64,000 nt of DNA from Dehalococcoidia bacterium (GTDB lineage Bacteria > Chloroflexota > Dehalococcoidia > Bin125), in assembly GCA_965242565.1 (NCBI GenBank), contig OZ251457.1, forward strand, positions 451,891-515,890. Direction: 5' to 3'. A model generated the notes under the pieces. That model ran no database searches and was not told where the DNA came from. It saw only the letters and a program-made list of their open reading frames with translations. Below are positions 8,739-58,397 of the stretch, piece by piece. Within the stretch, counting starts at the first letter, position 1; each line of letters begins with the position of its first letter. The position numbers were made by a program, and so were the translations under genes.

Positions 8739-9221
8739 TCAGCCCGCCTGGGCGGCGGCGAGCACCATTTCGAGCGCGCGGATCGCGGTCAGCCGCTTGT
8801 TGCCCTCGCGGTCTTCCGCCCAGACATGCCGCTCCGCCGCGATGCGGTCGCCCGGACCGACCGCCGCGATCCAGACGGTGCCGACGGGACGCTCCTCGTT
8901 GCCGCCGGTCGGTCCGGTGATGCCCGTCTCCGCCACGCCGATATCGGCGTTGAGCGTGTCGCGCACGCCGCGCGCCATCGCCACCGCCGCCTCTTCGGAG
9001 ACCGAGCCGTGTTCGCGCAGCAGCTCGCGATCGACGCCGATCAGGTTGATCTTCGGATGATTGTGATAGGGCGACGCGCCGCCGATCCAGGCGCGGCTGC
9101 AACCGGGAATGTCGGTGATCCAGTGTCCGATCAGGCCGCCGGTGTCGGTCTCGGCGGTGGCGAGGGTCAGCCTCCGCTCGGTCAGCGTGTCGACGACGGT
9201 TTGCGCCAGCGCTTCGGTCAT
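8739..9221 (-). CDS. CinA-family C-terminal domain protein (PncC-like nicotinamide-nucleotide amidohydrolase)
   Basis: 160 aa with the typical CinA_C motifs (LATAESCTGG-like: TLATAETDTGGLIGHWIT). Confidence 0.75.
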   Translation of the reverse strand: MTEALAQTVVDTLTERRLTLATAETDTGGLIGHWITDIPGCSRAWIGGASPYHNHPKINLIGVDRELLREHGSVSEEAAVAMARGVRDTLNADIGVAETGITGPTGGNEERPVGTVWIAAVGPGDRIAAERHVWAEDREGNKRLTAIRALEMVLAAAQAG

Positions 9222-9225
9222 CGGA

Positions 9226-9546
9226 TCAGTCCTCGTCCTCGCCGATGCCGGCGTGCGAGTCCCACTTGAAGATCAGGATCAGGATGAAGGTGACGAGCAC
9301 CAGGAACGGTGCGAGCATGATCGAGAACTCGAACCACTCCTCGCGATCGAAGTTGTTGACGCCGGTCCCGCCCTCGTCGGGCGCGGCCTGGAGTGCGAGC
9401 TCCGCCGTCGGTCCGGCCGGCGGCGCGTCGGCCGCCAGCGCATCGCCGGCCGCCAGCGCGCCCAGCGCGACGATCATCACCGCCGCAGCGGCGAGCGTCA
9501 GCGCCACGCGCCGCGCAGCTGCTGCGAACATCGTCCGAATTCTCAT
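9226..9546 (-). CDS. Small hypothetical membrane protein
   Basis: 106 aa; N-terminal hydrophobic segment and a C-terminal TM helix (FLVLVTFILILIF). Confidence 0.35.
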   Translation of the reverse strand: MRIRTMFAAAARRVALTLAAAAVMIVALGALAAGDALAADAPPAGPTAELALQAAPDEGGTGVNNFDREEWFEFSIMLAPFLVLVTFILILIFKWDSHAGIGEDED

Positions 9547-9578
9547 CACGGCCGCTCCTCCCTCAAGATCGTCCGCGC

Positions 9579-10880
9579 TTACTCCAGCGCGCCTTCGGCG
9601 GTCAGCGCGTCGATTCGCTCCTGATCGTAGCCGAGCATGCGGCTGAGCACGAAATGGGTGTCTTCGCCCAACCGCGGCGAGGGCGAGACGATCTCGGCGG
9701 GTGTCTCCGAGAAGCGCCAGGGCGGCGCGAGCACGGTGCGCTGGCGCGTCTCCGGCGGGCGGATCGGCACGCCGGCGCCGCGCGCCTGAAACTGCTCCGA
9801 GGCGTGGATGTCCGCGCCCCACATCGAGGGGCTGGCCGGCACGCCCGCTTCACGCAGCGTTTCCGACGCGGCCAGCGCCGACTGCTCGCTCGTCCACGCC
9901 TCAATCGGCGCGCGCAGCTCTTCGCGGTGCTTCCAGCGCCGCAGACCGGTGCGGAAGCGCGGATCGGCGCGCAGGTGATCCAACCCCGCCGCGTCGCACA
10001 GACTCTCCCACTCGGCGTCGTTGCGGCAGGCGATCGCCAGCCACGCTCCGTCGCTGCCATCATCGGAGCCAGACGCGCCGTTGGGCTCGCGCATTGCGGC
10101 GCAGCGGTAGACATCGTGCGGCGCCCAGGCGCGGTGGCCGTTGCCCAGCCGCTCGCCGTCGTCGCCCAGCAGCGAGACGCGTAGAAACTCCTCGCCCATA
10201 TGCATCGCGATCGCCTCGCGCGATGAGGCATCCACAAACTGCCCCAGCCCGGTGCGGTCGCGGTAGTGCAGCCCTGCCAGCATCGCAAACGCGGCCGCCG
10301 TGCCCGCGCGCAGATCGATCGAGCCGCCCATCGTCAGCGGCGGCTCGTCGGGCGCGCCGGAGAGGTAGGCGAGCCCGGCCAGCGCGGCGAAGGTCGGCGC
10401 GTAGCCGGTGTAGTTGCGCTCCGGCCCCGACGCGCCCAGCGCGCTGGCGGAGACCAGCACGATGTCTTCGCGCTGCTCGCGCAGCGACTCGTAGCCCAGC
10501 CCCAGCTTGTCCAGCGTGCCCGGGCGGAAGTTGTCGATCGCGCCGTCCGCCGTCGCCGCCAGATCGCGCACCACCTGCTTCGCGCCATCCTCTTTGAGAT
10601 TGAGCTGAATGGAGAGCTTGTTGAGGTTAAGTTCGTTGAACATCGGCGCCTGGTTGACGCCGCCGCGGAATGCGCCCATCGCCAGCGAGCGCTGGCGGCT
10701 GTGGTCGATCCGCGTGCGCGACTCGACCTTGATCACCTCCGCGCCGAGCAGCGCCAGCAGCATCGCGCCGTACGGTCCGGCCCAGGCCCAGGTGAAGTCA
10801 ATGATCCGCCGCCCCGCCAGCGGGCCGCGATGCGCGATCGACGCGAGCGGGAACTGGCCGTTGGCTCCGTTGCTGGTCAT
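9579..10880 (-). CDS. CoA-transferase family III (CaiB/BaiF) protein
   Basis: RIIDFTWAWAGPYG...AEVIKVE N-terminal signature; 4-nt overlap with the next paralog. Confidence 0.8.
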   Translation of the reverse strand: MTSNGANGQFPLASIAHRGPLAGRRIIDFTWAWAGPYGAMLLALLGAEVIKVESRTRIDHSRQRSLAMGAFRGGVNQAPMFNELNLNKLSIQLNLKEDGAKQVVRDLAATADGAIDNFRPGTLDKLGLGYESLREQREDIVLVSASALGASGPERNYTGYAPTFAALAGLAYLSGAPDEPPLTMGGSIDLRAGTAAAFAMLAGLHYRDRTGLGQFVDASSREAIAMHMGEEFLRVSLLGDDGERLGNGHRAWAPHDVYRCAAMREPNGASGSDDGSDGAWLAIACRNDAEWESLCDAAGLDHLRADPRFRTGLRRWKHREELRAPIEAWTSEQSALAASETLREAGVPASPSMWGADIHASEQFQARGAGVPIRPPETRQRTVLAPPWRFSETPAEIVSPSPRLGEDTHFVLSRMLGYDQERIDALTAEGALE

Positions 10881-13097: not shown

Positions 13098-13174
13098 GCG
13101 GCCGCCGACGCCCGCGCCCATCCTCCTAAAGGCCTGCCAGCTATTGGTACGCTGGCAACGGATCGGAGCCAACC

Positions 13175-13663
13175 ATGGTGATGGCGGAGGACACAGCCCT
13201 CGCAGGCTTGACGGTGCTGGACGCCACGGAACTGGCGACCCGCTGCCAGGAAATCGTGGATCAGGCTGTGCGCAGCGAGGACCGGCTCGTGCTCACCGGC
13301 GACGGCCGCCCCATCGCCTACCTGGAGCGCTACGAACCGCCGCCGCGGCCGTTCTACGTGCGCCCGTCGCCTGAGGGCGGCGGCGCATCCGAGCGCGTCT
13401 ACCGCGAGGTCGTTGAGACCATCCATCGGTCCGTCAAGGTGGCGGAGTTGCAAGCGCAATCGCCCGACCTGGTCGAGCAGGCCGCCGCCAACGACTGGCG
13501 GGTGTTGATCTGGAACCGCAACGGTCCCGACGCGATGCTCATCCGCTACGCCCGGCGCGGCCGTCAGACCTCGCCTGTCACCGCGGTCAACGACATTGAC
13601 TGGGATGTCGGCGAAGTGTGGAACGCCACCCTCGACGGTCCGACGGCGGGCGAGTTGCTGTGA
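13175..13663 (+). CDS. Phd/YefM-like antitoxin (extended, 162 aa)
   Basis: LTVLDATELATRCQEIVDQAVRSEDRLVLTGDGRPIAYLERYE matches the Phd/YefM fold pattern; stop overlaps the GTG of the next PIN gene. Confidence 0.55.
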   Translation: MVMAEDTALAGLTVLDATELATRCQEIVDQAVRSEDRLVLTGDGRPIAYLERYEPPPRPFYVRPSPEGGGASERVYREVVETIHRSVKVAELQAQSPDLVEQAAANDWRVLIWNRNGPDAMLIRYARRGRQTSPVTAVNDIDWDVGEVWNATLDGPTAGELL

Positions 13664-14058
13664 TTCTGTCCGACACGCAGACGCTCTACTGGTGGCGCGA
13701 GGATCGCGGGCGTCTTGGTACGAACGCGCTCGCGGTGCTTGATGCGGCGTGGGATGCACGCAACCTGGCGGCCTCTGCAATCTCATTCTGGGAAATCGGG
13801 ATGCTCGAGTCGAAGGGGCGGCTGTCGCTTCCTGTCAACGCCGACCAATGGCGGCTGGACCTGCTCAACGAAGGGCTTGCGGAGATACCCGTCGATGGCG
13901 GAATCGGCCTCCGCGCGGCCTACCTCGCCAACTTCCATGGCGACCCTGCGGATCGCATCATCGTCGCGACCGCCCTCAACGACCATCAACTCCTGACCAC
14001 AGATCGCGAAATCCTGGATTGGGATGGCCCGCTTCAGCGCATCGACGCTCGGCGATAG
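13660..14058 (+). CDS. vapC: PIN-domain toxin (VapC-like), GTG start
   Basis: VILSDTQTLYWW...FWEIGM...IIVATAL...TTD. Confidence 0.7.
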   Translation: MILSDTQTLYWWREDRGRLGTNALAVLDAAWDARNLAASAISFWEIGMLESKGRLSLPVNADQWRLDLLNEGLAEIPVDGGIGLRAAYLANFHGDPADRIIVATALNDHQLLTTDREILDWDGPLQRIDARR

Positions 14059-14106
14059 CCGCTGCCATGGAAAGCTCGGTACGCTGACGGCGGATCGGAG
14101 CCGAGC

Positions 14107-14607
14107 ATGGTGATGGCGGAGGACACAGCCCTCGAAGGTTTGACGGTGGTGGACGCCGCGGAATTGGCGACCCGCTGCCAGGAAATCGTGGATCAGGCCG
14201 TGCGCAGCGAGGACCGGCTCGTGCTCACCGGCGACGGCCGCCCCATCGCCTACCTGGAGCGCTACGAACCGCCGCCGCGGCCCTTCTACGTGCGCCCGTC
14301 GCCTGAAGGCGGCGGCGCATCCGAGCGCGTCTACCGCGAGGTCGTCGAGACCATCCACCGGTCCGTCAAGGTGGCGGAGCTGCAAGCGCAATCGCCCGAC
14401 CTGGTCGAGCAGGCCGCCGCCAACGACTGGCGGGTGCTGATCTGGAACCGCAACGGCCCCGACGCGATGCTCATCCGCTACTTCTGGGACGGGATGCATC
14501 GCAACTCCGGGATCGACAACGGCGACCTCGTCACGGCGGTCCGCGAGCTGCGCGACGAGATGGCCGCGGAAGCCGAGCGGTCAATGAACCGAAGGTTCCC
14601 CCCATGA
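14107..14607 (+). CDS. Phd/YefM-like antitoxin. Residues 1-125 are nearly identical to the 13175..13663 paralog; the C-terminus is unrelated
   Basis: Direct comparison of the two translations: only three substitutions in the first 125 aa, then complete divergence after ...DAMLIRY. Confidence 0.55.
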   Translation: MVMAEDTALEGLTVVDAAELATRCQEIVDQAVRSEDRLVLTGDGRPIAYLERYEPPPRPFYVRPSPEGGGASERVYREVVETIHRSVKVAELQAQSPDLVEQAAANDWRVLIWNRNGPDAMLIRYFWDGMHRNSGIDNGDLVTAVRELRDEMAAEAERSMNRRFPP

Positions 14608-15029: not shown

Positions 15030-16241
15030 GTGACTGACACCAACACCCCCCAGGACACTCCCCGCCCCTTTGACGGCGTCCGCGTGCTCGAGCTCGCCGA
15101 GGGCATCTCCGGTCCCTTCGCCGGGCGCTGGCTCGCCGCGCTCGGCGCTGACGTCGTCAAAATCGAGCGCACCACCGGCGACCCCTCCCGCGCCTTCGGA
15201 CCCTGGCCCGACGACCTCCCCGACGACGAAACCAGCGGCCTCTACCTCTACCTCAACGGCGGCAAGCGCAGCGTCACGCTCAACCTCGACACCTCCGACG
15301 GGCGCGCGATCCTCGAAGAGCTGGCGGCCGACGCCGAAATCGTGATCGAATCGTTCGCGCCCGGCTACCTGGCCGAGCGCGGACTGGACTACGACGCGCT
15401 CTCCGCACAGCGCCCCCAGCTGGTGATGATCTCAATCACTCCCTTCGGCCGGACAGGCCCCAACGCCGACCTGCCCGCCACCGAACTCACCCTCTTCGCC
15501 GCCTGCGGCCAACTCTGGCTAACCGGCGACCCGGCCCGTACCCCGCTCAAAAACGGCGGCTCGCAGCCCTCCTACCAGGCTGGCCTCAACGCACTCGCCG
15601 CCGTCGCCGGCGCCTACTACGGCGCGCTCGCCCACGGACAGGGCGCGCACATCGACCTGGCCATGCAGGAAACCTACGCCGCCATGGCCGAAGCCTTCAT
15701 GACCCGCGCCTCCCAACTCGGCATCGAGACGCTCCGCTCCGGCAACAACCTCAACGCCCTCTGGGGCATCTACCCCACCGCCGACGGCTACGGCGGCGTC
15801 TGCGCCCTCCCGCGCAACTTCCCCGGCCTCGTCGAAGCGCTCGACATGGAGGAAATCCGCGATCCCCGCTTCGCCGAGCCCGCCGGCCGCCTCGAACACA
15901 ACGACGAGCTGATCGCCCTGCTCTACGGCTGGTTCGCCCAGCGCACCCGCGAGGATCTGACCGAACTCGGCCTGCGCCACCGCGTCCCCTTCGGCTACGT
16001 CGCCTCGATCGCCGACCTCGTCGAATCCGAACACCTCAAACAGCGCGACTTCTTCATCCAACAGGACCACCCCCGCGCCGGCGCGCTCACCTTCCCCGGC
16101 CGCCTCTGGACCAGCAGCGAGCACGACTGGCGCAGCGACCGCGCCCCCGAACTCGGCGAACATAACGTCGCCGTCCTCCACCAGGAGCTCGGCTACGACC
16201 TCGAAGACCTCGTCCGCCTCCGCGAACTCGACGCCATCTAG
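15030..16241 (+). CDS. CoA-transferase family III (CaiB/BaiF) protein (GTG start)
   Basis: FDGVRVLELAEGISGPFAGRWLAALGADVVKIE signature. Confidence 0.8.
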   Translation: MTDTNTPQDTPRPFDGVRVLELAEGISGPFAGRWLAALGADVVKIERTTGDPSRAFGPWPDDLPDDETSGLYLYLNGGKRSVTLNLDTSDGRAILEELAADAEIVIESFAPGYLAERGLDYDALSAQRPQLVMISITPFGRTGPNADLPATELTLFAACGQLWLTGDPARTPLKNGGSQPSYQAGLNALAAVAGAYYGALAHGQGAHIDLAMQETYAAMAEAFMTRASQLGIETLRSGNNLNALWGIYPTADGYGGVCALPRNFPGLVEALDMEEIRDPRFAEPAGRLEHNDELIALLYGWFAQRTREDLTELGLRHRVPFGYVASIADLVESEHLKQRDFFIQQDHPRAGALTFPGRLWTSSEHDWRSDRAPELGEHNVAVLHQELGYDLEDLVRLRELDAI

Positions 16242-16254
16242 GGAGCGCCGCATC

Positions 16255-17541
16255 ATGCCCGACCCCGGCCGACCCCTCAGCGGCGTCCGCGTCGCCGACC
16301 TCACGATGATCTGGGCCGGCCCTTACGCCACCAAAATCCTCGCCGACCAGGGCGCGGAGGTGATCAAAATCGAATCCCCCCGCGCCTGGGACAACATCCG
16401 CACCCTGCTCCCGCCGCCCACCGCGCCCGGCGAGCGCTGGTGGAACACCAACTTCTACTTCCACGAGTACAGCCGCAACAAAAAGTCGCTCAGCCTCGAC
16501 CTCGCCGCGCCCCGCGGCAAGGAAATCTTCGCCCGCCTCGTCGCCGAGTGCGATGTCGTGATCGAGAACTACCGCACCGACGTGATGGACAACCTCGGCC
16601 TCAGCTACGACTGGCTGCGCAAGCAGCGCGAGGACATCATCGTCGTCGGCATGGCCGGCTTCGGCAAAACCGGCCCCGAGCGCAACGCCGTCGGCTATGG
16701 GCCGATCATCGAGATGATGTCCGGCCTCACCTCCACCAGCGGCTACGGCGACGACGGCATGCCCTACAAGAGCGGCATCTCCTACGGCGACCCCATCGCC
16801 GGCGTCACCGCCGCCGCCGCCGTCGCCACCGCCCTCATCCACCGCCGCCGCACCGGACGCGGCCAATACATCGACCTCTCCCAGCGCGAAGCCATGTCCA
16901 CGATGCTCGGCGAGTTCTATATGGACTGGTCGATGAACCGCCGGCTGCCCGAGCATCAGGGCAACGGGCACGACTGGATGGCCCCGCACAACATCTACCC
17001 CTGCGCCGGCGAGGAGGAGTGGATCGCCATCTGCGTCCGCACCGACGCCGAGTGGGAATCACTCAAGCAGGTCATGGGCGCCCCCGCCTGGGCGGACGGC
17101 GAGGAATACTCAGACCAAATCTTCCGCTGGGAGCACCGCGAACAGCTGGACCGCGCAGTCGCCGAGTGGACCTCGACGCGCAGCAAAACCGAGCTGTTCG
17201 GGTCCCTGCGCGACGCCCGCATCCCCTCCTCACCCGTCTGGAAGACGCTCGAAGTGATCCGCGACCCGCACCTCAAGGCCCGCGGCTACTACGAGCCGCT
17301 CCACCACCCCGAAGTCGGCATCTGGAACGTCCACGGCTGGCTCTGGCGCACCGCCGGCGCAGGTCCCTGCGTGCTCGCCCCCGCCCCCGACTTCGGTCAA
17401 CACAACGACGAAATCCTCGGCGGCCTGCTCGGCCTCAGCGCCGAAGAGCAGGCGGCCCTCGAAGCCGCCGGCATCACCGCCGCCCGCCCCGAAGGCATCC
17501 CCTTCGCCTCCGAAATGCCCGCCCAACCCTCCCTCATCTAA
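16255..17541 (+). CDS. CoA-transferase family III (CaiB/BaiF) protein
   Basis: LSGVRVADLTMIWAGPYATKILADQGAEVIKIE signature. Confidence 0.8.
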   Translation: MPDPGRPLSGVRVADLTMIWAGPYATKILADQGAEVIKIESPRAWDNIRTLLPPPTAPGERWWNTNFYFHEYSRNKKSLSLDLAAPRGKEIFARLVAECDVVIENYRTDVMDNLGLSYDWLRKQREDIIVVGMAGFGKTGPERNAVGYGPIIEMMSGLTSTSGYGDDGMPYKSGISYGDPIAGVTAAAAVATALIHRRRTGRGQYIDLSQREAMSTMLGEFYMDWSMNRRLPEHQGNGHDWMAPHNIYPCAGEEEWIAICVRTDAEWESLKQVMGAPAWADGEEYSDQIFRWEHREQLDRAVAEWTSTRSKTELFGSLRDARIPSSPVWKTLEVIRDPHLKARGYYEPLHHPEVGIWNVHGWLWRTAGAGPCVLAPAPDFGQHNDEILGGLLGLSAEEQAALEAAGITAARPEGIPFASEMPAQPSLI

Positions 17542-17565
17542 GCCCCGTCCACCAACCCGCCATAC

Positions 17566-17728
17566 CCCCGCCCCCTTTTCCCCGTCATTCCCGCCCCCTT
17601 TTCCCCGTCATTCCCGCCCCCTTTTCCCCGTCATTCCCGCCCCCTTTTCCCCGTCATTCCCGCCCCCCTTTCCCCGTCATACCCCCACCCCCTTTTCCTC
17701 GTCATTCCCGCCCCCGAGCGGGAATCGG
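17566..17728. repeat. Tandem array (about 6 units) of a 23-bp repeat (GTCATTCCCGCCCCCTTTTCCCC) ending in a GGGAAT hairpin (CATTCCCGCCCCCGAGCGGGAATC)
   Basis: Perfect direct repeats visible in the sequence; no spacers, so not CRISPR. Confidence 0.7.
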
Positions 17729-17760
17729 CCCCGAGTCCCCCTCCAACGTCGCGCTACATC

Positions 17761-17975
17761 ACTCCCCCACTCCGTCGCCCCAGACTTGATCTGGGGCCCA
17801 AACCCAACTCTCTTCACGCGCCAGAGCCCCGACCTGCCCCCCAACGCCCGCACGCAGGACCGCCCAACGCCCCACCCCACTAACCCACCATCCCTGACCT
17901 CCGCCATCCCCGCGCACCTCTCCGTCATACCCGCGCTTGCCGCGGAGCCTGCCCCCGGCCCGAACGGGGGTATCT
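17761..17975. repeat. MITE-like mosaic repeat (CCGTCGCCCCAGACTTGATCTGGGGCCCAAACCCAAC ... CCGTCATACCCGCGCTTGCCGCGG...GGGTATCTCGACG)
   Basis: Same modules recur at about 21841, 25840, 32420, 35570 and 36450. Confidence 0.55.
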
Positions 17976-18186
17976 CGACGTGAACAGCGCCAACGCCGCA
18001 CTCTCTTCCCTAACCTTCGCCTACGCGCATGAGCCGCGCCGAATCATCATCAGCATAACCCCTTATCAAACACTATTGACATCCTACGCGCAAATCTGCC
18101 ACCCTTCCCCCACCGGTCCTCATCTCCGCCCCGAAGCCGCCGAACAGTCGGCCGCCCGCATGCGCGGGGGTGGGAAGGGGGAGCAC

Positions 18187-20388
18187 ATGGTCCATCTGCC
18201 GCCGCCGCTCATGCACGAGCGACCGCACCTGCCGCACGCCGTCAGCGAAGCCTTACGACACCGCCCCCACATCGTGCCGCTCATCGCCGACTCCCCCCAG
18301 CACCACCCACGCATCTTCAGCGCCGCCGCGATCGGTGCCAGCTTCCTGCTGCTCCTCGTCGCAGCCATCACCGTCTACAACAGCATCGTGCGAGCGCCCG
18401 ACGCTCAAAACGGGGCGCTGACCGAGGCGCTGCTGGCCTCCGGCACGACGGCCGACTGGCACTGGGGCGGCGGTCCGCCCGATGCGGAAGCCGCCGCCGC
18501 GCGAGACGGCGAACTCCAGCCCGGCAACCTCTACATCAACACCGACAACGGCGACATCTACCTGCGGCTCGAAGACGGTTGGAGCGACGATCCCGTCGGC
18601 AGTCTGGGCAGCGCCGCTCAGCCGATCATCCTCGAGCAGCCCGCCGCCGCCGGTGTTGATCGGGCGTCAATTGTCGGGGGGGGGGGGGGTAAAACCGGTG
18701 ATTCTTCCGCCGACTACAGCACATCGGGCGCTCCGGGACCCGCCGGACCGCCCGGTCCGCGCGGCGAAGCGGGGCTGCAAGGACCCGATGGCGAACGCGG
18801 TCCCCGCGGCCTGATCGGACCCACCGGCCCGCAAGGATTGCAAGGCGAGCAGGGCGAACCCGGCCCCGCTGGTGCAATCGGCCCGCAAGGGCTGCAAGGC
18901 GAACAGGGTGAGCGCGGCGAACCCGGTCCCGCCGGTGCAGTCGGCACGCAAGGACTGCAAGGCGAGCGCGGCCCCGCTGGTCCTGCCGGCGCAGTCGGCG
19001 CAATCGGTCCGCAGGGTCCTGTCGGCCCCGCCGGTCCGCGAGGATTGCAAGGCATCCCCGGACCTCCCGGCGCACAAGGCGAGCGCGGCGAGCAGGGCCT
19101 CCAGGGACCCACCGGACCGGCCGGGGGTCCGCCCGGACCGCAAGGCGCTGTGGGACCGTCCGGACCTCAAGGCGACGACGGCCCGCCCGGTCCGCGCGGC
19201 GAACGCGGACCGCAGGGCGAGCGCGGACCCGCCGGTCCGCAGGGTATCCAGGGACCGCCCGGACCCGCCGGCGGCCCGCGAGGAGCCACCGGCGCGGTCG
19301 GCCCCCAAGGTCCGCAGGGACCGCGCGGCCCACAGGGCGAACGCGGCTTCACGGGCGGCAGCGGCGCGCCCGGCCCGCAGGGCGCGACGGGCGAACGCGG
19401 CCCCGCCGGACAGCGCGGCGGCCGCTGGTTCACCCACGCCGGCGGCCACGCCTCCTACAGCTGGACGGGCATCGCCCTGCAATCCGGCGACATGTTCATG
19501 AACACCGCCAACTCGCAGATCTTCAGCTACGACGGCGCAGCTTGGGCGCTGGTCGGCACGCTGACCGGCATCCGGGGATTGCAGGGGCCGCAGGGCGCGG
19601 TCGGTCCGCAAGGCCCGCAGGGAGCGACCGGCCCGCAAGGCGAGCAAGGCCCACAAGGAAACATCGGCGCCGCCGGCCCCACCGGCTCGGTAGGCCCGCA
19701 GGGCGAAGCGGGCAACCGCATCTACCACCACACCGCCGCCCCGCCCGCCGTCGGCGACGCCTACTGGAGCGCCTACGGCAACCCGACGCTGCAACGCGGC
19801 GACCTGCTGATCAACACCGGCAACGGCGACCTGCACTGGTACGGCGGCAGCGCCTGGTCGCTGCTCGTCAACCTCCGTCAGGGACCGCAGGGACCGGCCG
19901 GTCCGACCGGACCGCAGGGCGACCAGGGCGCGACCGGTCCTCAGGGCGCGCGCGGAATGGGCTGGCACTTCGGCACCGACGACGTGCCGGCGCCCGTCGG
20001 TCCGGTCGCCGGCGACCTCTACTTCAACTACCAGAGCTTCGACGTCTACGCCTACCGCTCGGCTCCGGGTACGGGCACGAGCTGGAATCGGGTCACGTCG
20101 CTGCGCGGGCCGCAGGGCGAGGTCGGCCCGCAAGGCTCCCAGGGCGAGATCGGTCCGCAAGGCGCGCCGGGCGCAACAGGAGCAGCGGGCGCGACCGGCC
20201 CCGCAGGCGCGCCGGGCAACCAGTGGTACCACGGAGCCGGTGAGCCGACGAGCAACCCGCCCGCCGCGCGAGCCGGCGGCTTCCGCGCCGGCGACATGTA
20301 CCTCGACACCTCCAACCACCGCATCTGGAGCCACAACGGCTCCGCTTGGACCCAGATCGCCAGCCTCGTCGTCACCGCCCAGCCCTGA
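18187..20388 (+). CDS. Membrane-anchored collagen-like repeat protein (about 250 aa of G-X-Y triplets plus five interspersed about 25-aa repeats)
   Basis: SD-like GGGAAGGGGGAG precedes ATG 18187; TM helix [22 protein letters not shown]; uninterrupted [23 protein letters not shown]... triplets; recurring GD(L/M)(Y/F)xNTxNxx(I/L)(Y/W)xYxGxxW motif. Confidence 0.75.
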
Positions 20389-20447
20389 CCGGTCCCCGCG
20401 GAGCGGTCCGCCGCGCCCGTCGACGGGCGCGGCGGACCCGTTCCGCA

Positions 20448-20906
20448 TCACTCACGTTCTCGCTCCACCACCGCGTCCCCCAGCGCCTCGCGGAAATACC
20501 CCGTACGCCCTTCCAGCGACTCCCCCACCACCTCCGCCCACGCCGCCGCCGGACCCAGCCGCCGCGCAATCTCCTCTATATCCGTCCACCACTCCCAGCC
20601 GCGCGGCAGCGGCGCCGGCAGCTCCAGCCGCAGCGCATCCTCCTCCTCAGGCAGCCAGAAACGGCAATACCACGCCCGCCGACGCACAATCCCCGCCTGC
20701 ATCATCAGCGCATAGGTCGTGCGCCCCGCATCGTCGCGCCGCTCCGGTTCCTCCGCGCAACGCAGCAGGAAGTTGAAGATCGAGAACTGCCCCGACTCGA
20801 CGCCCGTCCGCGCCGCGCCGATGCGCCGCACCCCGTCGGCCACCGCCAGCAGCAGCGCCGCCCGCTCCACCGACAGGTTCGCCTCCTCCAGCGTCGTCGC
20901 CCTCAC
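20448..20906 (-). CDS. Hypothetical protein
   Basis: 152-aa ORF whose start overlaps (ATGA) the stop of the upstream enoyl-CoA hydratase gene; no recognisable domain. Confidence 0.35.
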   Translation of the reverse strand: MRATTLEEANLSVERAALLLAVADGVRRIGAARTGVESGQFSIFNFLLRCAEEPERRDDAGRTTYALMMQAGIVRRRAWYCRFWLPEEEDALRLELPAPLPRGWEWWTDIEEIARRLGPAAAWAEVVGESLEGRTGYFREALGDAVVERERE

Positions 20907-21721
20907 CGCTCGCCGCGCTGAAACTCGTCAAGCGTCGCCCGCAGCCCGTGCTCGCGGATGCTCCGATTCATCGCCAGCACCGGCTCCGAAAAGTGCGCAA
21001 TCGTGTCGATCTCCACCCCGCCCAGCAGCGCCTCGCGGAAGCCTTGCACCTCCTGCGTGCGGTTGATCGCCTTCTTCTGTAGCACCAGAATCTCTTTCGG
21101 CGTCCGCGCCGCCCGCTGCGCGTACTCCTCCACGAATTCGTCCAGCTGATCGGGTGGCAAACTGCGGTTGAACAGCCCGATCTCCGCCGCCTCCGCGCCC
21201 GAAATCATCGAGCCGACCGGAAAGAAGAACTCCTTCGCCCGCTTCGCGCCCACCTGCCAGGCCCAGAACGAGGCCACGAAGCCCGCGCCCAGCGGCAGCT
21301 GTGGCGCGCCCACCCGCGCGTCGTCCGCCGCGAATGTCACATCGCAGATCGTCGCCAACTGCGTGCCGCCGGCCAGGCAGTGCCCGTGGACTTTGGCGAT
21401 CACCGGCAGCCGCAAGTCCCAGATGCGCAGCCAGTTGCGCAGCAGCTCCTCCAGCCCGTCGCGGTCCCGCGAGATCGCCGACGCCTGCTCCGCTGCCACA
21501 CCGCCGCCGCCCTGAAGGTCGTAGCCCGCGCTGAACGCCCGTCCCGCCCCGCTCAGCAGCGCCACATGGACGCCGTCGTCGCGCTCCGCCTCCGTTAGCG
21601 CCTCGATCAGCTCGCGCTGCATCGCCCGCGAGATCGCGTTCAGCTTCTCCGGGCGATTGAGCGCAATCCGCGCCACCCGCCCCTCGCGCTCCACCCGAAT
21701 CGTCTCCCACTGCTCAGCCAT
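20903..21721 (-). CDS. Enoyl-CoA hydratase/isomerase (crotonase) family protein
   Basis: IALNRPEKLNAI...LSGAGRAFSAGYDL crotonase signature. Confidence 0.8.
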   Translation of the reverse strand: MAEQWETIRVEREGRVARIALNRPEKLNAISRAMQRELIEALTEAERDDGVHVALLSGAGRAFSAGYDLQGGGGVAAEQASAISRDRDGLEELLRNWLRIWDLRLPVIAKVHGHCLAGGTQLATICDVTFAADDARVGAPQLPLGAGFVASFWAWQVGAKRAKEFFFPVGSMISGAEAAEIGLFNRSLPPDQLDEFVEEYAQRAARTPKEILVLQKKAINRTQEVQGFREALLGGVEIDTIAHFSEPVLAMNRSIREHGLRATLDEFQRGER

Positions 21722-21785
21722 CGCCCACCTCCTAACTCACCCCTGATCGTACGCCCTTCACCTCGCACTCCCCCCACTCCGCGCC

Positions 21786-22060
21786 CCCTGGCAACCTCCG
21801 ACCACCGCTTGACCCCCATCACAGTTGCTCCGTCGCCCCAGCACACCCCCTTTCCGTCGCCCCAGACTTGATCTGGGGCCCAAACCCAACGTTGCGCGCG
21901 ACACCAAGCTCCCGCGCCGTCCCCACTTCCGTCATACCCGCGCTTGCCGTGGGTATCTCGCCGAGAGCAGCACCACCGTTGCATCCCCCTCCCTCCCGTC
22001 ATTCCCGCCTCCGAGCGGGAATCAGCCCCGCGCATCCTCCTAACGCCCCTCCCTACCCGA
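21786..22060. repeat. MITE-like mosaic repeat; begins with a 55-bp segment identical to the 3' end of the IS110-type remnant at 36408-36462
   Basis: CCCTGGCAACCTCCGACCACCGCTTGACCCCCATCACAGTTGCTCCGTCGCCCC is present at both sites. Confidence 0.5.
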
Positions 22061-22322
22061 TCCGACCATCCCGACCAGATAGAAACCCCACTCACACCCC
22101 AAGACTCACCCGACCACCCCCATCGCGCCATCTGTGGACCACTCAGACTCCCCCAGTTGCCATCGACGCTTGAATGTTCTAGATTTCTGTTTGGAACTCA
22201 CGTTCCCGGCGGCGTGGACGACATCCCAGGAAAACCCCAATGACCATCGCACTGATCCTGATCACCATCGCCCTCGGCCTCTGGCTCGTGCGCCAGTGGT
22301 CCCGCGGCGACCTCGCCTCACC

Positions 22323-22455
22323 CTCCCGTCATTCCCGCCGCCCCAGTTCCCGTCATTCCCGCCAGCCCAGTTCCCGTCATTCCCGCCGCCCCAGTTCCCG
22401 TCATTCCCGCCGGCCCAGTTCCCGTCATTCCCGCCCCCGAGCGGGAACCCGCCCA
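22323..22455. repeat. Tandem array (about 5 units) of a 23-bp repeat (CCCAGTTCCCGTCATTCCCGCCG) ending in CCCGAGCGGGAAC
   Basis: Direct repeats in the sequence; the apparent ORF 22240..22536 (SRHSRRPSS...) is just a translation of the array. Confidence 0.65.
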
Positions 22456-22614
22456 ACCCCGTTCCATCTGCCCGTTTCGCCCGCCCTGCCCGCCGCGAGC
22501 ACCACAGACCCTCCCTCCAACCGACGAGCGGCCTGACCCTCGGACGCCCCTTGCCTCACAACCCCGCACAACGCTTAGACTGCCATTCGCGTAGCTCGCG
22601 CGCGTGAGGACGAC

Positions 22615-23340
22615 ATGGCTCAAACCCCAGACAACGTCGACGCTGCCCGCTCCGACCCGGCCGCCCTGCTCGAGCGCGTCGTGCTCTTCCGCAATATGCC
22701 CTCCGACATGCTCCGCGAACTCGGCCACCAACTGCGCTCCGTCACCTACCGCGCGCAGACCGACATCTTCCACGCCGGCGACGAAGGCGCCACGATGTAC
22801 ATCATCCTGAGCGGCGCCGTCAAAATCTTCGTCCCCGCCCTCGACGGACGCGAAGTCGTCCTCGCCGTCCACCGCTCCGGCGACCTCTTCGGCGAAATGG
22901 CCCTGCTCGACGACGAACCGCGCTCCGCCTCCGCCAGCACCATGGAAGACACCGAGATGTTCAGCCTCAACCGCGCCGACTTCTCCAACGTGCTCAACAG
23001 ACACCCCGAAGCGCTGCGCGCCATCATCGATGTGCTCGTCGAGCGCCTCCGCGCCACCAACCAGTCCATCCAGGACGCCTACCTGCTCGATGTGCCCGGC
23101 CGCCTCGCCCGCCGCCTGCTGCTGATCGCCGACGAACACGGCGCCGACACCGAGCGCGGACGCGACATCGGCCTCCGCGTCAGCCAGCAGGAATTGGCCA
23201 GCATGATCGGCGCCAGCCGTGTCGCCGTCAACAAGCAGCTCCAGGCCTGGCGGCAGCGCGGCATCGTCGAAGTCACCCGCCAGCGCGTCGTGCTTCTCGA
23301 CCCCGCCGCCCTCCAACGCGAGTTCACCCTCTCCCCCTAG
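22615..23340 (+). CDS. Crp/Fnr-family transcriptional regulator
   Basis: cNMP-binding domain (MYIILSGAVKIF...GEMALLD) plus C-terminal HTH (SQQELASMIGASRVAVNKQLQ). Confidence 0.8.
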   Translation: MAQTPDNVDAARSDPAALLERVVLFRNMPSDMLRELGHQLRSVTYRAQTDIFHAGDEGATMYIILSGAVKIFVPALDGREVVLAVHRSGDLFGEMALLDDEPRSASASTMEDTEMFSLNRADFSNVLNRHPEALRAIIDVLVERLRATNQSIQDAYLLDVPGRLARRLLLIADEHGADTERGRDIGLRVSQQELASMIGASRVAVNKQLQAWRQRGIVEVTRQRVVLLDPAALQREFTLSP

Positions 23341-23416
23341 CCGCCCAACGTGACCGAACAGGGCCGAACGCAACCGAACAAACCCGAACGCAGCCGAACA
23401 GCGAACAGGACGACCC

Positions 23417-24127
23417 GTGCCCGACACCCTCAACCCCGACCAACTCGCCGCGCTCCGCGCCTGGCCCTCCCCGGCCGTCGCCAACGCCATCGAAACCTTC
23501 GACATCCGCAGCCGCGCCTTCGGCTTCATGACCCCCGACATCCTCTGCCGCTTCCCCGACATGCAACCCATCGTCGGCTACGCCGCCACCTGCAAAATTC
23601 GCGCCAGCATCCCGCCCGGCGACGACCCCGAAACCCAGGCCGCGCCCGACTGGTGGGCCCACATCGAATCCATCCCCGAACCCCGCATCATCGTCATCCA
23701 GGACCTCGACCAACCACCGATCGGCTCTTTCTGGGGCGAGGTCAACGGCAACATCCACAAGGCGCTCGGCGGCATCGGCCTGATCACCGACGGCGGCGTC
23801 CGCGACCTCGACGAGGTTGAGGAGCTCGGCTTCCAGTTCTTCTCCCGCGAAATCCTCGTCTCCCACGCCTATGTCCACATCGTCGAAATCGGCCAGCCCG
23901 TCACCGTCGGCGGCCTCACCGTCTCCCCCGGCGACCTCCTCCACGGCGATAAGCACGGCGTCGTCCAAATCCCCCACGACATCGCCCCCCAGGTCGCCGA
24001 CGCCGCCCAGGCCGTCGAAGACCGCGAGCGCGTGATCATCAACTACGCCAAATCCGCCGACTTCACCCGCCAGGGCCTGCTCAACATCATGCGCCCCACC
24101 CCCAGCGCCGAGGAGGAAACGCCCTAG
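23417..24127 (+). CDS. RraA-family protein (RNase E inhibitor RraA / 4-hydroxy-4-methyl-2-oxoglutarate aldolase-like), GTG start
   Basis: RraA-like fold motifs (GDLLHGDKHGVVQIP, GGVRDLDE). Confidence 0.65.
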   Translation: MPDTLNPDQLAALRAWPSPAVANAIETFDIRSRAFGFMTPDILCRFPDMQPIVGYAATCKIRASIPPGDDPETQAAPDWWAHIESIPEPRIIVIQDLDQPPIGSFWGEVNGNIHKALGGIGLITDGGVRDLDEVEELGFQFFSREILVSHAYVHIVEIGQPVTVGGLTVSPGDLLHGDKHGVVQIPHDIAPQVADAAQAVEDRERVIINYAKSADFTRQGLLNIMRPTPSAEEETP

Positions 24128-24130
24128 GGC

Positions 24131-24310
24131 GTGTTCACACTTCCGCCATACCGCCCCCCCTCCGTCATTCCGGCGCACGCTGAGCCTGCCCCCGGCTCGA
24201 ACGGGGGAATCCAAACCCAACTCCGCTCGCAGCGCCGGAAGCCTCGAATTGCCCGCCAACATCCGTTCGTAGGGCATCTCGGCGCACCGCGCCGCCGGCG
24301 ACCGCCGTAT
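24131..24310. repeat. MITE-like repeat (TAGGGCGTGTTCACACTTCCG...) with a TTCCAGCGTGCGCTGGAA palindrome at its right end
   Basis: Terminus shared with copies at 25621, 32262 and, in reverse orientation, 37690-37716. Confidence 0.5.
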
Positions 24311-25634
24311 GGATTCCAGCGTGCGCTGGAATGATGGGCAGAAGCGCGCGCGCCGCCTCAGACGCCGACTCACCCCCCGCCGTCGCGGCGCATTCGCACC
24401 CTTCCTCGCCCGCGACTTCCGCGTCCTCTGGGCCGTCATCTTCCTCCGCTCCTCCGCCCTCTGGCTCGACCAGGTCGCACGACCCGTCCTCATCGCCGAA
24501 CTCACCGGCTCCGCCCTCCTGCTCGGAGCCGTGCTCGCCGCCCGCATGGCCCCCAATCTCCTGCTCGGCGTCTTCGCCGGCGCAATCGTCGACCGCTACC
24601 CCCGCCGACGCATCCTCGTCCTCTCCCAGACCGGCAACGTCCTCGCCGCCGCCCTGCTCTGCATCCTGCTCGCCGCCGGCTGGGTCCAGGCCTGGCACGT
24701 GATCGCCCTCGCCGCCGTCTCCGGCGCGAACATCGCCTTCTTCCAACCCGCCCGCCAGGCCATCCTCCCCGCCATGGTGTCCTCCTCCTCAATCCGCAGC
24801 GCGGTCGCCCTCTCCCAGACCGCCAACACCGTCACCCGCATCGGCGGCGCGCTGCTCGCCGGCCTCCTGCTTGAATTCGCCGACTTCAGCGCCATCTACG
24901 GACTCATGGCCGCCGTCTACGCCGCCGCCGCTCTCTCCGCCCTCCTCATCCGCGCCGACGTCGAAGCCCCCGCCCAGCGCGAACCGAGCGACGGCTCCCT
25001 CCTCTCCCAAACAGCCGACGGCTTCCGCTGGGCTGTCCGCACCCGCCGACCCCTCGCCGTGCTCGGCGTCTCCGTCCTCCTCTTCATCTTCATCGTCCCC
25101 TACCAGGGCGTCTTCCTCCCCCTGCTCGTAATCGACGAACTCCGCGAGCACGCCTCTTGGGTCGGCTACATGATGGCCGCCGGCGGCGCGGGCGCAGTCG
25201 CCGGCTCCCTGATCCTCGCCGCCGCCCGCCAACTGCCCGCTACCGGACGCCTCATGGCCTCCCTGCTCGTCGCCGCCGGTATCGTTCTCGCCCTGCTCTC
25301 CTTCGCCCCCAACCTCCCCCTCGTCGCCCTCTGCGTCTTCGCCGCCGCCGCCTGCACCACCAACGTCATGTCCCTCGCCAACCTCGCCCTGCTCCGCCTC
25401 GGACGCGAAGGCATGGCCGGACGCGCCGTCAGCCTCATGAACTTCGCCCGCGGCATGATCCCCCTCGGCGCCCTCATCGCCGGCGCGCTCGCCGACGCCC
25501 TCGGCCCCCGTACCGGCCTGCTCGCCGTCGCCGCCGCCGCAACCGCCGTCAGCCTCGCCGTCCTCCTCTCCCCCATCGCCGGCCAAGCCTCCGAAACGCC
25601 TCCCGACTCCGCCCCCGATCAGCCCCGCGCCTAG
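24309..25634 (+). CDS. MFS transporter
   Basis: 12-TM-like hydrophobic periodicity; MFS motif GxLxDRxGRR-like (IVDRYPRRRIL); the exact start is uncertain because its first codons overlap the MITE. Confidence 0.7.
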   Translation: MDSSVRWNDGQKRARRLRRRLTPRRRGAFAPFLARDFRVLWAVIFLRSSALWLDQVARPVLIAELTGSALLLGAVLAARMAPNLLLGVFAGAIVDRYPRRRILVLSQTGNVLAAALLCILLAAGWVQAWHVIALAAVSGANIAFFQPARQAILPAMVSSSSIRSAVALSQTANTVTRIGGALLAGLLLEFADFSAIYGLMAAVYAAAALSALLIRADVEAPAQREPSDGSLLSQTADGFRWAVRTRRPLAVLGVSVLLFIFIVPYQGVFLPLLVIDELREHASWVGYMMAAGGAGAVAGSLILAAARQLPATGRLMASLLVAAGIVLALLSFAPNLPLVALCVFAAAACTTNVMSLANLALLRLGREGMAGRAVSLMNFARGMIPLGALIAGALADALGPRTGLLAVAAAATAVSLAVLLSPIAGQASETPPDSAPDQPRA

Positions 25635-43582: not shown

Positions 43583-46500
43583 TCAGGCCGCCGACAGCCA
43601 CAACCCCGTCAGCGCCTCCGCCTGCTCGAGCACCGTGTCCGTCGCCCGCTCCTGCTTGTCGGGCGGGTAGCCGTGCTTGCGCAGCACCCGCTTCACCGCC
43701 GTCCGCAGCTTCGCCCGCACCGCCTCCCGATGCGCCCAGTCCAGCGACGCCGAGCCGCGCACCATCTCGACCAACTCCCGCGCGATGCCCCGCAGCTTCT
43801 CGTCGCCCAACACCTCCACCGCGCTCTCGTTGTCCGCCAGCGCGTCGTAGAACGCCAGCTCATCGTCCCTCAGACCGAGCCGCTCGCCCCGCCCCTCGGC
43901 CTCTCGCAGCTCCCGCGCCAGATCGATCAGCTCTTCGATCACCTGCGCCGCCTCCACCGCCCGATTCCGGTAGCGCAGCAGCGAACGATCCAGCAGCTCC
44001 GAGAAGTTGCGCGCCTCCACCACATTCTTCCTGCGCCGCGCCGCGATCTCCCCCTTCAGCAGCTTCTGCAGCAACTCCACCGCCAGATGACGCTGCGGCA
44101 TCCCCCGCACCTCCGCCAGAAACTCATCGGACAGAATCGAGGTGTCCGGCTTGCCCAGCCCCGCCGCGGCGAAGATGTCCAGCACCCCCTGCGACGCGAC
44201 CGCGTTCGAGACCAGCCGCCGCAGCGCGTAATCCAGCTCCTGATCGGCCTGCCCCTCCGCCGGCGAGCGCTTCGACAACGCCGTCCGCACCGCCTGGAAG
44301 AACGCCGCATCGTCGCGGATGCGCCGCGTCTCCTCGTGCGGCGCCGCCAGCGCGAACGCCTGCGTCAACTCCCGCACCGCCGCCAGACACCGCTCCTTCC
44401 CGTCCTCCTGCGCCAAAATGTGCTCCTGCGCCGCCGGCAGCAGCGCCAGACGCTGCTCCGCCGTCCCCCGCCGCCAGAGCGAGCGATCAAACCCGTGAAA
44501 CAGCCCCTCGCAAACCTCGTACTTCTCGACCAGCGCCGCCACCGCATCCTCGTGGTTCAATGTCGTCCGACCCGTCCCGCCGCTCTCCGTGTAGACCGCC
44601 AGCGCCTGCTTCAGGTCGTGCGCCAGACCCAAATAGTCCACCACCCGCCCGCCGTCCTTGTCCTTGAACACCCGATTGACCCGCGCGATCGCCTGCATCA
44701 GGCCGTGCCCCCGCATCGGCTTGTCCACGTACATCGTATGCAGACTCGGCGCGTCGAAACCAGTCAGCCACATATCGCGCACCAGCACGATCCGCAGCCC
44801 GTCTTCCGGATCGCGGAAGCGGTTCGCCAGCGCCTCGCGGCCCGCCTTGTTGCGAATATGCCGCTGCCACTCCGTCGGATCCGACGCCGAGCCCGTCATC
44901 ACCACCTTGATCTCGCCCGCCTCATCGTCCTCGCTGTGCCACTGTGGACGCAACCGCGTCAACTCCGCGTACAGCTCCACGCAGATCCGCCGACTCATGC
45001 AGACCACCATCGCCTTGCCCGACAGCGCCTCCAGCCGCTGCTCGAAATGCTCCACGATGTCCTCCGCAATCTGCCGCACCCGCGGCTTCGCCCCCACCAC
45101 CGCCTCCAGCTGCGACCAGCGCGTCTTCAGCTGCTCACGTTCCGCCGACTCCTCGCCCTCCGTGATCTGCTCGAAATTCGCATCCAGCAGCTCCCGATCG
45201 CCGCGAATGCCCAGCTCCACCAGCCGACTCTCGTAATAGATCGGCACCGTCGCCTTGTCCTCCACCGCCCGCTGAATGTCGTACACGCTGATGTAATCGC
45301 CGAACACCGCCCGCGTATCAGCGTCCCGCTTCTCGATCGGCGTTCCCGTGAAACCCACAAACGACGCCCGCGGCAGCGCATCCCGCATATGCCGCGCGAA
45401 CCCGTCGATGAAATCGTACTGACTGCGGTGCGCCTCGTCCGCTATCACCACGATGTTCCGACGCTCCGACAGCGCCGGCTGCTCCCCGCCCCCGCGCTCC
45501 GGAAAGAACTTCTGAATCGTCGTGAAAATCACCCCGCCCGACGCCCGCCGCAGCCGCGACCGCAAATCCGCCCGACTCTCCGCCTGCTCCGGCCGCTGCC
45601 CCAGCACATCCGCGCAGCGCGAAAACGTCGTGAACAACTGGCTGTCCAAATCGTTGCGGTCCGTCAGCACCACAATCGTCGGATTGCCCATCCGCGCATC
45701 ACGCGCTATCGCCCCAGCGTAAAACGCCATCGTCAGACTCTTCCCCGAACCCTGCGTGTGCCAGACCACCCCGATCCGACGATCCCCCCGCTCCCCGCCC
45801 GCGCGGCCCGTCTCGTAACGCCCGCCCGGCTCCGCGAAGCCCGCCTCCTCCGAAGCCCGCACCGTCTGCTCCACCGCGTGCCGCACCGCGTGAAACTGGT
45901 GATACCCAGCCAACTTCTTCGCCGTCGCCCCGCCGTCGTCCTCGAACACGATGAAATCGCGCACCAGCGCCAACAGACGCGACGGCTCGCACACCCCCTC
46001 CAGCAGCACCTGCAACTCCGGCATATGCGGATCATGCAGCCGCTCGCCCGAAATCGTCCGCCACGGCTTGAACCACTCCATCCCCGCCGTCAGCGTCCCT
46101 AGCCGCGCCCACACCCCGTCCGACACGATCAGTAACTCATTCATCGCAAACAGCGACGGCAACTCCGCCTGGTACGTCTGCAACTGCCGCCACGCCGCCC
46201 ACACGTCCGCCTGCTCGTCGGCCGGATTCTTCAGCTCGATCACCCCCAGCGGCAGGCCGTTCACAAACAGCGCGATATCGAGCCGCCGCAAGTGCTTCTG
46301 CTCCGACACCGTCAACTGGTTCACCGCCAACAGGTTATTCGCCTCCGCCTCCTCGAAATCGAGCGCCCGCGCCTGCGCCCCGCGCACCCGCCCCTCATCG
46401 TCGCGGTACTCCACCGGCACCCCGTCCACCAGCATCCGGTGAAACGACCGGTTGCGCGCCTCCGTCGTCGCCCCCGCCGGCCGCGTCAGCCTGGCCAACG

Positions 46501-46705
46501 CATCCTCCAGCGCCGAGTCCGGCAGCTCCGGGTTCAACTCCGCCAGCGCATCCCGCAGCCGCTGCTCCAACACCACATCCGAAAAATCCCCGCGCTCCGC
46601 CGTCCCCTCCGGCCCAAGCTCCGGCCCGTGCGCCGCCTCCCAGCCCAGACCGCGCAGCCAGCCCAGCGCCGCCGCCTCCACCGTCCCCTCATTGAACGCG
46701 CTCAC
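43583..46705 (-). CDS. hsdR: Type I restriction endonuclease subunit HsdR
   Basis: 1040 aa; helicase motifs ([10 protein letters not shown] Walker A, DEAH-like [10 protein letters not shown]); GTG start overlapping (GTGA) the stop of the upstream 140-aa gene. Confidence 0.9.
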
Positions 46706-47124
46706 GACCCGCCGCCAACCTGACAGGTGTAGGAGATGTCCGCCACCCGCACCGCGCCCAGCGCCACATTGAGAATCAGGAACGGTAGTTGGCCGATCTC
46801 CGTCGTCCGCGCGACCAGCTCCACCTCATCGCCTTCCAGCCGCAGCGAACGCCGCACATCGGCGATCAGCGACAACTGGTAGTCGGTGAGCTCGTCAAAG
46901 CACCGCGCGCGTCGCAGCCAGTCGTGCGCATCGCAGTAGTCGGTCACGACATACTCCCCGTCGCGCTCCAGAATCCAGACTTGCACCTCGTCGCAATCCG
47001 GGTAGAGCAGCGACGTGTTCACGCCGACTGCCCCGTCCGGCGCGGGGAAGAACTCGAACAGATCCGACGCCTCCAGGCGCATCTCCGTGCTCAGCGCATC
47101 CAGCAGGGCCGGTTTGGTCACCAT
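46702..47124 (-). CDS. Hypothetical 140-aa protein 'P1' (cassette gene, copy 1 of 3); no recognised domain
   Basis: [12 protein letters not shown]...[17 protein letters not shown]; paralogs at 47687..48109 and 48669..49091. Confidence 0.55.
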
Positions 47125-58283: not shown

Positions 58284-58397
58284 ATGCGCGTTCCTGTGGC
58301 GGACTCGCTCCGTGACGGATCGCCTGCGATACCCTGTTGACGAGGGCGGATGCGTCGCGCGCGATGAGCACGCCTCGGAATTCGAGAGAGTCGCTTC

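Follow-up and report, generated by a model that had tools for sequence, protein, structure and literature searches.

A long poly-G tract in a collagen-like gene of an uncultured Dehalococcoidia bacterium as a candidate phase-variation switch

A gene for a collagen-like, membrane-anchored protein carries an uninterrupted run of 14 G residues in a 64,000-nucleotide stretch of a Dehalococcoidia bacterium genome (assembly GCA_965242565.1, contig OZ251457.1, positions 451,891 to 515,890), which we refer to as the window. We believe that this G14 tract is probably a hypermutable repeat that acts as a translational phase-variation (contingency) switch. At the comparative level the contingency-locus reading is supported by what relatives of the gene show: the repeat is long and in frame, its length is polymorphic between alleles with nearly identical flanks, and the changes in length toggle an otherwise intact gene between intact and truncated forms. 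A first-pass annotation of the window had already proposed slipped-strand switching here, and the proposal has held up, as the observed lengths place the gene in all three frames while the rest of it is intact and under purifying selection.

The tract and the gene that carries it

The tract occupies positions 18676-18689 on the plus strand, within the context CAATTGTC-G14-TAAAACC (in longer form, TCAATTGTC-G14-TAAAACCGGTGAT). It is the sole homopolymer longer than 7 nucleotides in the window, the next longest being nine runs of 7. With a G+C content of 68.5% and 30.5% G on the tract strand, a first-order Markov model predicts about 3e-5 G runs of 14 or more per window (and about 6e-3 C runs), which agrees with the first-pass statement that such a run is not expected by chance. 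The reference copy is in frame and the run is read as four GGG codons followed by GGT, corresponding to codons 164-168 counted from the ATG at 18187, or 173-177 from the deposited start at ATG 18160; the earlier placement about 160 codons into the gene was therefore correct. GGG accounts for only 3.8% of the other 159 glycine codons of this gene and for 22% of those in 16 neighbouring genes, and the only other run of four glycines among the genes examined is encoded as GGCGGCGGCGGT. The tract is thus far beyond chance and contrary to the codon usage of its own gene. It lies 3' of the lone hydrophobic anchor (amino acids 43-68) and 13 residues ahead of the first G-X-Y run (amino acid 181 onward), the order of parts that had been described previously. 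The features of the gene are as follows.

18187..20388, plus strand: collagen-like membrane-anchored protein gene, 733 amino acids from ATG 18187; Pfam Collagen E=9e-53
18313..18390, plus strand: single hydrophobic segment, predicted signal-anchor or transmembrane helix, amino acids 43-68
18523..18582, plus strand: module copy 1 (GDxYxNTxNGDxY...GxW), D8 repeat family, upstream of the tract
18676..18689, plus strand: G14 homopolymer, proposed slipped-strand switch, in frame here (ON), read GGGG+G
18690..18692, plus strand: TAA abutting the tract, which stops translation at once after gain of one base or loss of two (+1 class)
18727..19425, plus strand: main collagen (G-X-Y) block, 77 triplets in three runs
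18812..18814, plus strand: TGA ending the -1 frame, which yields an out-of-frame tail of about 41 amino acids
19486..19545, plus strand: module copy 2, D6 repeat family
19567..19719, plus strand: collagen block 2, 17 triplets
19798..19857, plus strand: module copy 3
19882..19962, plus strand: collagen block 3, 9 triplets
20011..20061, plus strand: module copy 4
20107..20223, plus strand: collagen block 4, 13 triplets
20290..20349, plus strand: module copy 5, C-terminal

The full open reading frame (ORF) holding the tract runs from 17980 to 20388 on the plus strand. Translation likely starts at ATG 18187 (MVHLPPP..., with AAGGGGGAG just 5' of it), while the public record starts at ATG 18160 and gives 742 amino acids, in a translation identical to protein P0134, which is encoded on a contig of 3,259,939 bp. 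The 733-residue protein begins with a His/Arg/Pro-rich N-terminus, followed by the hydrophobic segment, whose best 19-residue Kyte-Doolittle window scores 2.49 (the runner-up in the protein reaches 0.86). A region of about 95 amino acids after this segment carries the first module motif and then a linker, and the four later modules, of 50-60 amino acids each, separate the G-X-Y blocks and share the motif GDxYxNTxxxxxxxYxGxxW. The C-terminus reads ...SLVVTAQP and has no LPXTG motif. A Pfam search of the protein returned Collagen only, and the five non-collagen modules searched in isolation matched no Pfam family. Matches in PDB and NCBIfam (collagens, BclA 1wck, Lcl, SclA/B) were limited to the G-X-Y repeats, those in NCBIfam falling below the curated cut-offs. 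The first-pass annotation had spoken of collagen-like adhesins in connection with the gene; its collagen repeats do match adhesin models, but all below these cut-offs, and the term "adhesin" is an assumption. With one transmembrane segment near the N-terminus and all collagen blocks C-terminal to it, the protein may be exposed at the cell surface.

Strand slippage during replication, as established for tracts of this kind, would add or remove G residues. When 3n+2 G follow ATTGTC (14 in the window), read-through would produce the full 733-residue protein (ON), with a cytoplasmic N-terminus, one transmembrane anchor, one module, and then about 560 amino acids of triple helix broken by four modules, presumably forming a trimeric surface fibre. 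Loss of one G, or gain of two, would instead append 41 residues of nonsense sequence and leave a membrane stub of about 208 amino acids; the first-pass annotation had this shifted frame ending at 18814, and the TGA at 18812-18814 bears this out. Gain of one G, or loss of two, would end translation at the TAA abutting the tract, a stop that the annotation had not mentioned. Because the transmembrane segment lies 5' of the tract, ON and OFF products alike would contain it, and the OFF products would retain the membrane anchor together with the first module. The switch might also alternate between two products that are each functional, the one-module membrane stub of about 208 amino acids and the full fibre. 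Slipped-strand mispairing is the simplest mechanism compatible with all the observations, and would make expression of the fibre stochastic; the changes in length would be expected to arise by replication slippage at a high rate and to be reversible within a population.

The immediate flanks of the tract are themselves unusual. Two AT-rich hexamers, the palindrome CAATTG (18669-18674) and TAAA(A/G)C (18690-18695), bracket the run and are invariant in all aligned orthologues (7/7 for the TAAA), although they are atypical of a gene with 68% GC; the TAA doubles as the +1-frame stop. We considered whether CAATTG and TAAAAC could form a sigma-70-like internal promoter with the G run as spacer, but a scan of 17500-21000 found none, and the distance from TTGTCG to TAAAAC is only 12 nucleotides, so that the promoter reading also fails on spacing. 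Quadruplex-aware folding predicted a two-layer G-quadruplex from G13 and a three-layer one from G15, and such predicted structures could promote replication slippage and pausing alike.

Tract-length alleles among relatives

A search with the N-terminal 177 residues returned three protein clusters only, all of them short, and a search with the C-terminal 322 amino acids returned four true relatives. Cluster members and the contigs fetched for them provided ten DNA loci of the tract-bearing clade plus further alleles known from protein only, for which the frame class was deduced from the protein ends. Pattern scans for the N-terminal domain in JGI metagenome contigs and in GTDB representative genomes found no relative, and the tract-bearing clade is absent there. 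Every allele of the clade has a poly-G run at exactly the same site, in total lengths of 13, 14, 15, and 16 nucleotides, two of them reading GGT+G10 and GGT+G12. The comparison of orthologues suggested by the first-pass annotation therefore did reveal variation in length at a conserved position. The alleles are listed below.

Window, 3.26-Mb contig: G14 after ATTGTC, in frame (ON)
L089, 15x circular 3.23-Mb chromosome: G13, -1 frame
L090 = L091, scaffold and Logan contig: G13, -1 frame
L001 = L002, scaffold and Logan contig: G13, -1 frame
L087, scaffold: GGT+G10 (13 nucleotides), -1 frame
L003, 2x contig: G16, -1 frame
L086, scaffold: GGT+G12 (15 nucleotides), +1 frame
L004, scaffold: ATTGC+G13, +1 frame
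P0124, P0128, P0132, P0137, protein only: -1 frame, tail VK...
P0126, P0131, P0133, protein only: +1 frame, stop straight after the glycines

Altogether we distinguished 15 alleles, from at least eight samples and the window genome, of which one is ON, nine are shifted by -1, and five by +1. The -1 tail of the window type is present in P0002, P0124, P0125, P0128, P0132, P0136, and P0137, and the products ending in ...GGGG(G)* are P0001, P0126, P0127, P0131, and P0133. Several pairs differ in frame and hardly at all in sequence: P0001 and P0124, as well as P0125 and P0127, are identical over 162-166 N-terminal residues, while the window protein (ON) differs from P0137 (-1) at 1 of 163 residues. 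The frame class is thus changing faster than the protein sequence. A query of 91 amino acids spanning the junction in the ON frame had no significant match, and no other cluster representative reads through the tract.

The run itself has been maintained across three sub-clades; in L086 and in L087 a single G has been replaced by T at the 5' end, which is the sole break in it. The first-pass annotation had named mixed glycine codons in orthologues as evidence against a switch, and no allele of the clade has them, these two having a single 5' GGT. More distant homologues lack both the homopolymer and the Gly5 linker. Two tract-free homologues from the same project, P0140 and P0145, are intact, with 673-676 amino acids and about 58% identity. 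Another, at L085:7604-11359, has 1251 amino acids, 45% identity, and an N-terminal transmembrane anchor, and is also assembled intact. The latter adjoins glpK-glpD in a related Dehalococcoidia contig, and in the public annotation it is broken up into a 452-residue fragment and a spurious antisense ORF (8855-9922); collagen-like genes in such metagenome-assembled genomes (MAGs) are annotated wrongly even where no frameshift is present.

Selection downstream of the tract and competing explanations

If the truncated alleles were decaying pseudogenes, further damage would be expected 3' of the tract. In global alignments of the three complete orthologues (L089, L090, and L087) with the window, the only frame-shifting indel is a single nucleotide at 18676, and the remaining nine indel differences are of 9, 45, and 99 nucleotides, all multiples of 9. 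The ON frame stays open from the tract for 562 (L089), 580 (L090), and 598 (L087) amino acids, to a common C-terminus of ...SLVV[TN]AQP. Downstream of the tract, the ratio of nonsynonymous to synonymous polymorphism (pN/pS) is 0.11, 0.06, and 0.03 among the OFF alleles L087, L001, and L086, and 0.25-0.33 against the window allele, at a synonymous divergence (dS) of about 0.26-0.35. Over the 123 nucleotides 3' of the tract, 16 of 24 variable columns are third positions of the ON frame, which are second positions in the frame of the -1 tail, and amino-acid identity is 0.89 in the ON frame versus 0.76 in the tail frame. These data show purifying selection on the downstream frame, which holds between OFF alleles as well. 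Given the low pN/pS, the third-position bias, and the higher identity in the ON frame, being out of frame cannot be a long-standing pseudogene state. The in-frame indels are a second kind of variation in the gene: the length of the collagen stalk (window 18907-19030 versus L087, L089, and L090) changes by multiples of three G-X-Y triplets.

We therefore regard it as highly improbable that the tract is an accident, either in a gene that is being lost through frameshifts or as a neutral glycine linker, even though most alleles are disrupted and Gly-rich linkers are common beside collagen domains. No complete allele has a second lesion, the downstream pN/pS remains at 0.03-0.33, the homopolymer has persisted across a dS of about 0.25-0.35 in a gene that otherwise makes little use of GGG, and sister clades do without a Gly5 linker. 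Selection and codon data already contradict this explanation.

An error hotspot in sequencing or assembly, the alternative raised in the first-pass annotation, deserves more weight, since the true length could be in frame (for example G14) everywhere and the public differences could be homopolymer miscalls. This certainly applies to L003, the contig with 2x coverage, whose G16 is accompanied by more frameshifts in the same gene. The -1 class is the commonest (9/15), which is the direction expected of under-calling, and a single assembly of long-read style (with contig names like ctg28370_15x_c) is the source of both L003 and L089. On the other hand, independent assemblers arrive at G13 for two samples (L090 = L091 over 1085 nucleotides at 100% identity, and L001 = L002), and -1 and +1 alleles both occur, including in short-read scaffolds (L086 with GGT+G12, and L004). 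L087 is out of frame with only G10 after GGT, a length that short reads usually call well. Between the window and L089 there are no gaps over 2488 nucleotides of adjacent genes, and the tract is the one place in the gene where the two differ by a frameshift. Moreover, runs of G7-G8 and C7-C8 in these loci leave genes unbroken. As both frame classes occur, assemblers agree, L087 has only G10, and indels are absent elsewhere, miscalling is unlikely to explain all of the lengths, and we consider it an improbable account of the locus as a whole.

Recoding at the RNA level is a further alternative, in which the gene would normally sit out of frame in the genome, and slippage of RNA polymerase or frameshifting on the ribosome would yield both fibre and stub, with variation in the DNA being secondary. 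It would accommodate strong conservation of the downstream frame (pN/pS 0.03-0.11) in a set of alleles of which 14 in 15 are out of frame. Long homopolymers are known sites of transcriptional slippage (background in PMC3711429), and the stable G-quadruplex predicted at 13 or more G could pause polymerases or ribosomes. However, near-identical alleles occupy three frames with at least five lengths, whereas programmed sites have a fixed offset and length; the bacterial slippage sites that have been described are A/T runs (PMC3711429) and the tract here is poly-G; the -1 tail lacks coding constraint, with changes hitting its second codon positions; and no ribosomal slippery heptamer of the X XXY YYZ type is present. 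With neither frame offset nor length conserved, programmed recoding is disfavoured, and we think it slightly less probable still than miscalling. RNA-level slippage on a run of 13-16 G could nevertheless make the OFF state leaky.

Several points weigh against a phase-variation switch. The ON share of 1/15 is lower than the 1/3 expected under unbiased switching (binomial P=0.019), so that an extra assumption is needed, whether selection for OFF, a deletion bias, or expression through slippage at the RNA level. Tract lengths were seen as assembly consensus and not per read, and long G runs are error-prone in sequencing, the commonest class (-1) being the outcome that systematic under-calling of G14 would produce. 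The L003 allele stands on the low-coverage contig with other frameshifts described above. Nearly all alleles with fetched contigs derive from a single metagenome project (the "PANK22-1" scaffolds together with two Logan runs) and from one long-read assembly. Finally, the surface location and the function of the protein are inferred. With regard to the rarity of ON, the modal G13 lies one below the in-frame G14, and together these are consistent with the deletion bias of long G tracts in Campylobacter jejuni (see below). Alternatively, ON alleles could be rare because displaying the fibre is selected against, or because RNA-polymerase slippage makes expression leaky. We suspect that OFF is favoured in situ (14/15 alleles), for example because the fibre is costly or serves as an attachment site for phages or predators.

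Genomic setting, known systems, and implications

The host is an uncultured, presumably soil-type member of the Chloroflexota, class Dehalococcoidia, with a 3.26-Mb genome of 68% GC. The GlpK encoded in the window is 72-78% identical to that of five complete or near-complete Dehalococcoidia MAGs, none being closer; those with a complete chromosome measure roughly 3.1-3.4 Mb. Upstream of the collagen-like gene are two genes for family-III CoA-transferases, and downstream are a hypothetical gene and an enoyl-CoA hydratase gene, followed by Crp-like, RraA-like, and major facilitator superfamily (MFS) genes. We also considered that the protein might be a phage tail fibre or of prophage origin, and rejected this, as the neighbours are metabolic or regulatory and include no phage genes. 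A tblastn search of the N-terminal domain against 50,697 phage records found no match. The PHROG matches of the whole protein stem from the collagen repeats, and the isolated modules gave only a weak tail-fibre match (phrog_21412, E=0.003-0.005).

Other repeats occur around the gene. In the intergenic region 5' of it (17544-17738) there is a tandem array of about seven copies of a 23-nucleotide unit, CCCGCCCCCTTTTCCCCGTCATT, with five perfect cores in the window, two in L090, and none in L089, and this array may be a second variable repeat near the collagen-like gene. Hairpins resembling repetitive extragenic palindromes (REP-like; GTCATTCCCGC...GAGCGGGAATC and CGCCCCAGACTTGATCTGGGGCCCAAACCCAAC) are found at 17688-17945 and 21834-22471, and also in the flanks of L001 and L086; the copies are 89-96% identical to each other and lie on both sides of the block formed by the collagen gene, the hypothetical gene, and the enoyl-CoA hydratase gene. 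Gene order around the locus (window 15030-25631) varies among close relatives. L090 has the order of the window, L089 has the Crp-RraA-MFS block inverted and lacks the enoyl-CoA hydratase gene, and L003 has the same block upstream of the collagen gene. The flanking repeats may mediate these rearrangements. The window is also rich in defence and addiction genes (2-1795, 13130-14604, 43586-46825, 54321-56033, and 58368-59957), namely two type I restriction-modification methylase genes, HsdR, an AAA_21/AbiEii-like ATPase, and two Phd/YefM-like antitoxin ORFs, whose equivalents in L090 adjoin PIN toxins.

A close parallel to the arrangement described here is SclB/Scl2 of Streptococcus pyogenes, which is controlled by slipped-strand mispairing of a pentanucleotide coding repeat (Lukomski 2001 and Rasmussen & Bjorck 2001, cited in PMC10330708). 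Both are collagen-like proteins, and a surface location and translational switching by a coding repeat 5' of the G-X-Y region, which are proposed in our case, would be shared as well. In SclB/Scl2 the repeat has a 5-nucleotide unit right after the start codon, whereas here it is a homopolymer at codon 164; Scl2 carries a signal peptide and is anchored through a C-terminal LPXTG motif, whereas here there is an N-terminal transmembrane anchor without LPXTG; and the host is a Firmicute pathogen in one case and an uncultured Dehalococcoidia bacterium in the other. The protein does not belong to the Scl or the Lcl family, given its anchor, its lack of LPXTG, and NCBIfam scores below the cut-offs: 175 versus 325 for SclB and 127 versus 400 for SclA, with only the collagen repeats aligning, and 206 versus 500 for Legionella Lcl, over G-X-Y stretches only.

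In mechanism, the tract resembles the polyG/polyC contingency genes of C. jejuni (PMC3401435, PMC4965091), in which an intragenic tract toggles the frame of a surface-structure gene by changes of one base. There, polyG tracts of 8-11 nucleotides switch at high rates, and mutability rises 10-fold when the tract grows from G8 to G11, with a bias towards deletions (PMC3401435). That organism has an AT-rich genome with many such loci and a modal G9, whereas here a 68% GC genome has one locus in 64 kb with G13-G16. Homopolymer variants of Mycobacterium tuberculosis (ESX-1-associated and in glpK; PMC11898584, PMC13596474) are similar in that a high-GC organism has indels, reversible ones in that species, in coding G/C runs, but those tracts are of about 7-9 nucleotides, in metabolic or secretion genes of clinical isolates, as opposed to environmental populations. 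Bacillus BclA and Legionella Lcl have G-X-Y stalks on the bacterial surface, as the present protein presumably does, with triplet numbers that vary by strain; here the number varies in 9-nucleotide steps, and the similarity is confined to the collagen repeat. To our knowledge, no homopolymer switch has been described for BclA or Lcl. The mechanism proposed here is a known one; the novelty lies in the host, which is an environmental, uncultured lineage of the Chloroflexota, in the gene family, and in a case made from metagenomes.

Phase variation by repeat slippage is textbook knowledge where host-adapted pathogens are concerned. For bacteria of soil and ocean, a 2025 review identifies a gap in what is known of the phenomenon (PMC11868660). 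From metagenome assemblies alone, the comparative case for a contingency locus in this uncultured, high-GC lineage of the Chloroflexota is fairly complete. The locus points to a presumed surface fibre that these bacteria require and yet can often ill afford to present. The assemblies also carry a practical warning: gene callers split the gene in 14 of the 15 public alleles, and such loci are therefore systematically mis-annotated as fragments. It is intriguing to consider, though we would put it forward only tentatively and think it rather doubtful as a whole, that this is the first population-genomic instance of simple sequence repeat phase variation in the Chloroflexota, in an uncultured, aerobic-type Dehalococcoidia lineage known from environmental metagenomes, with the locus OFF in 14 of 15 strains through strong, fluctuating counter-selection on the collagen-like fibre. 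If true, the predominance of OFF would imply that the fibre is a liability at times, for example as an attachment site for phages or grazers.

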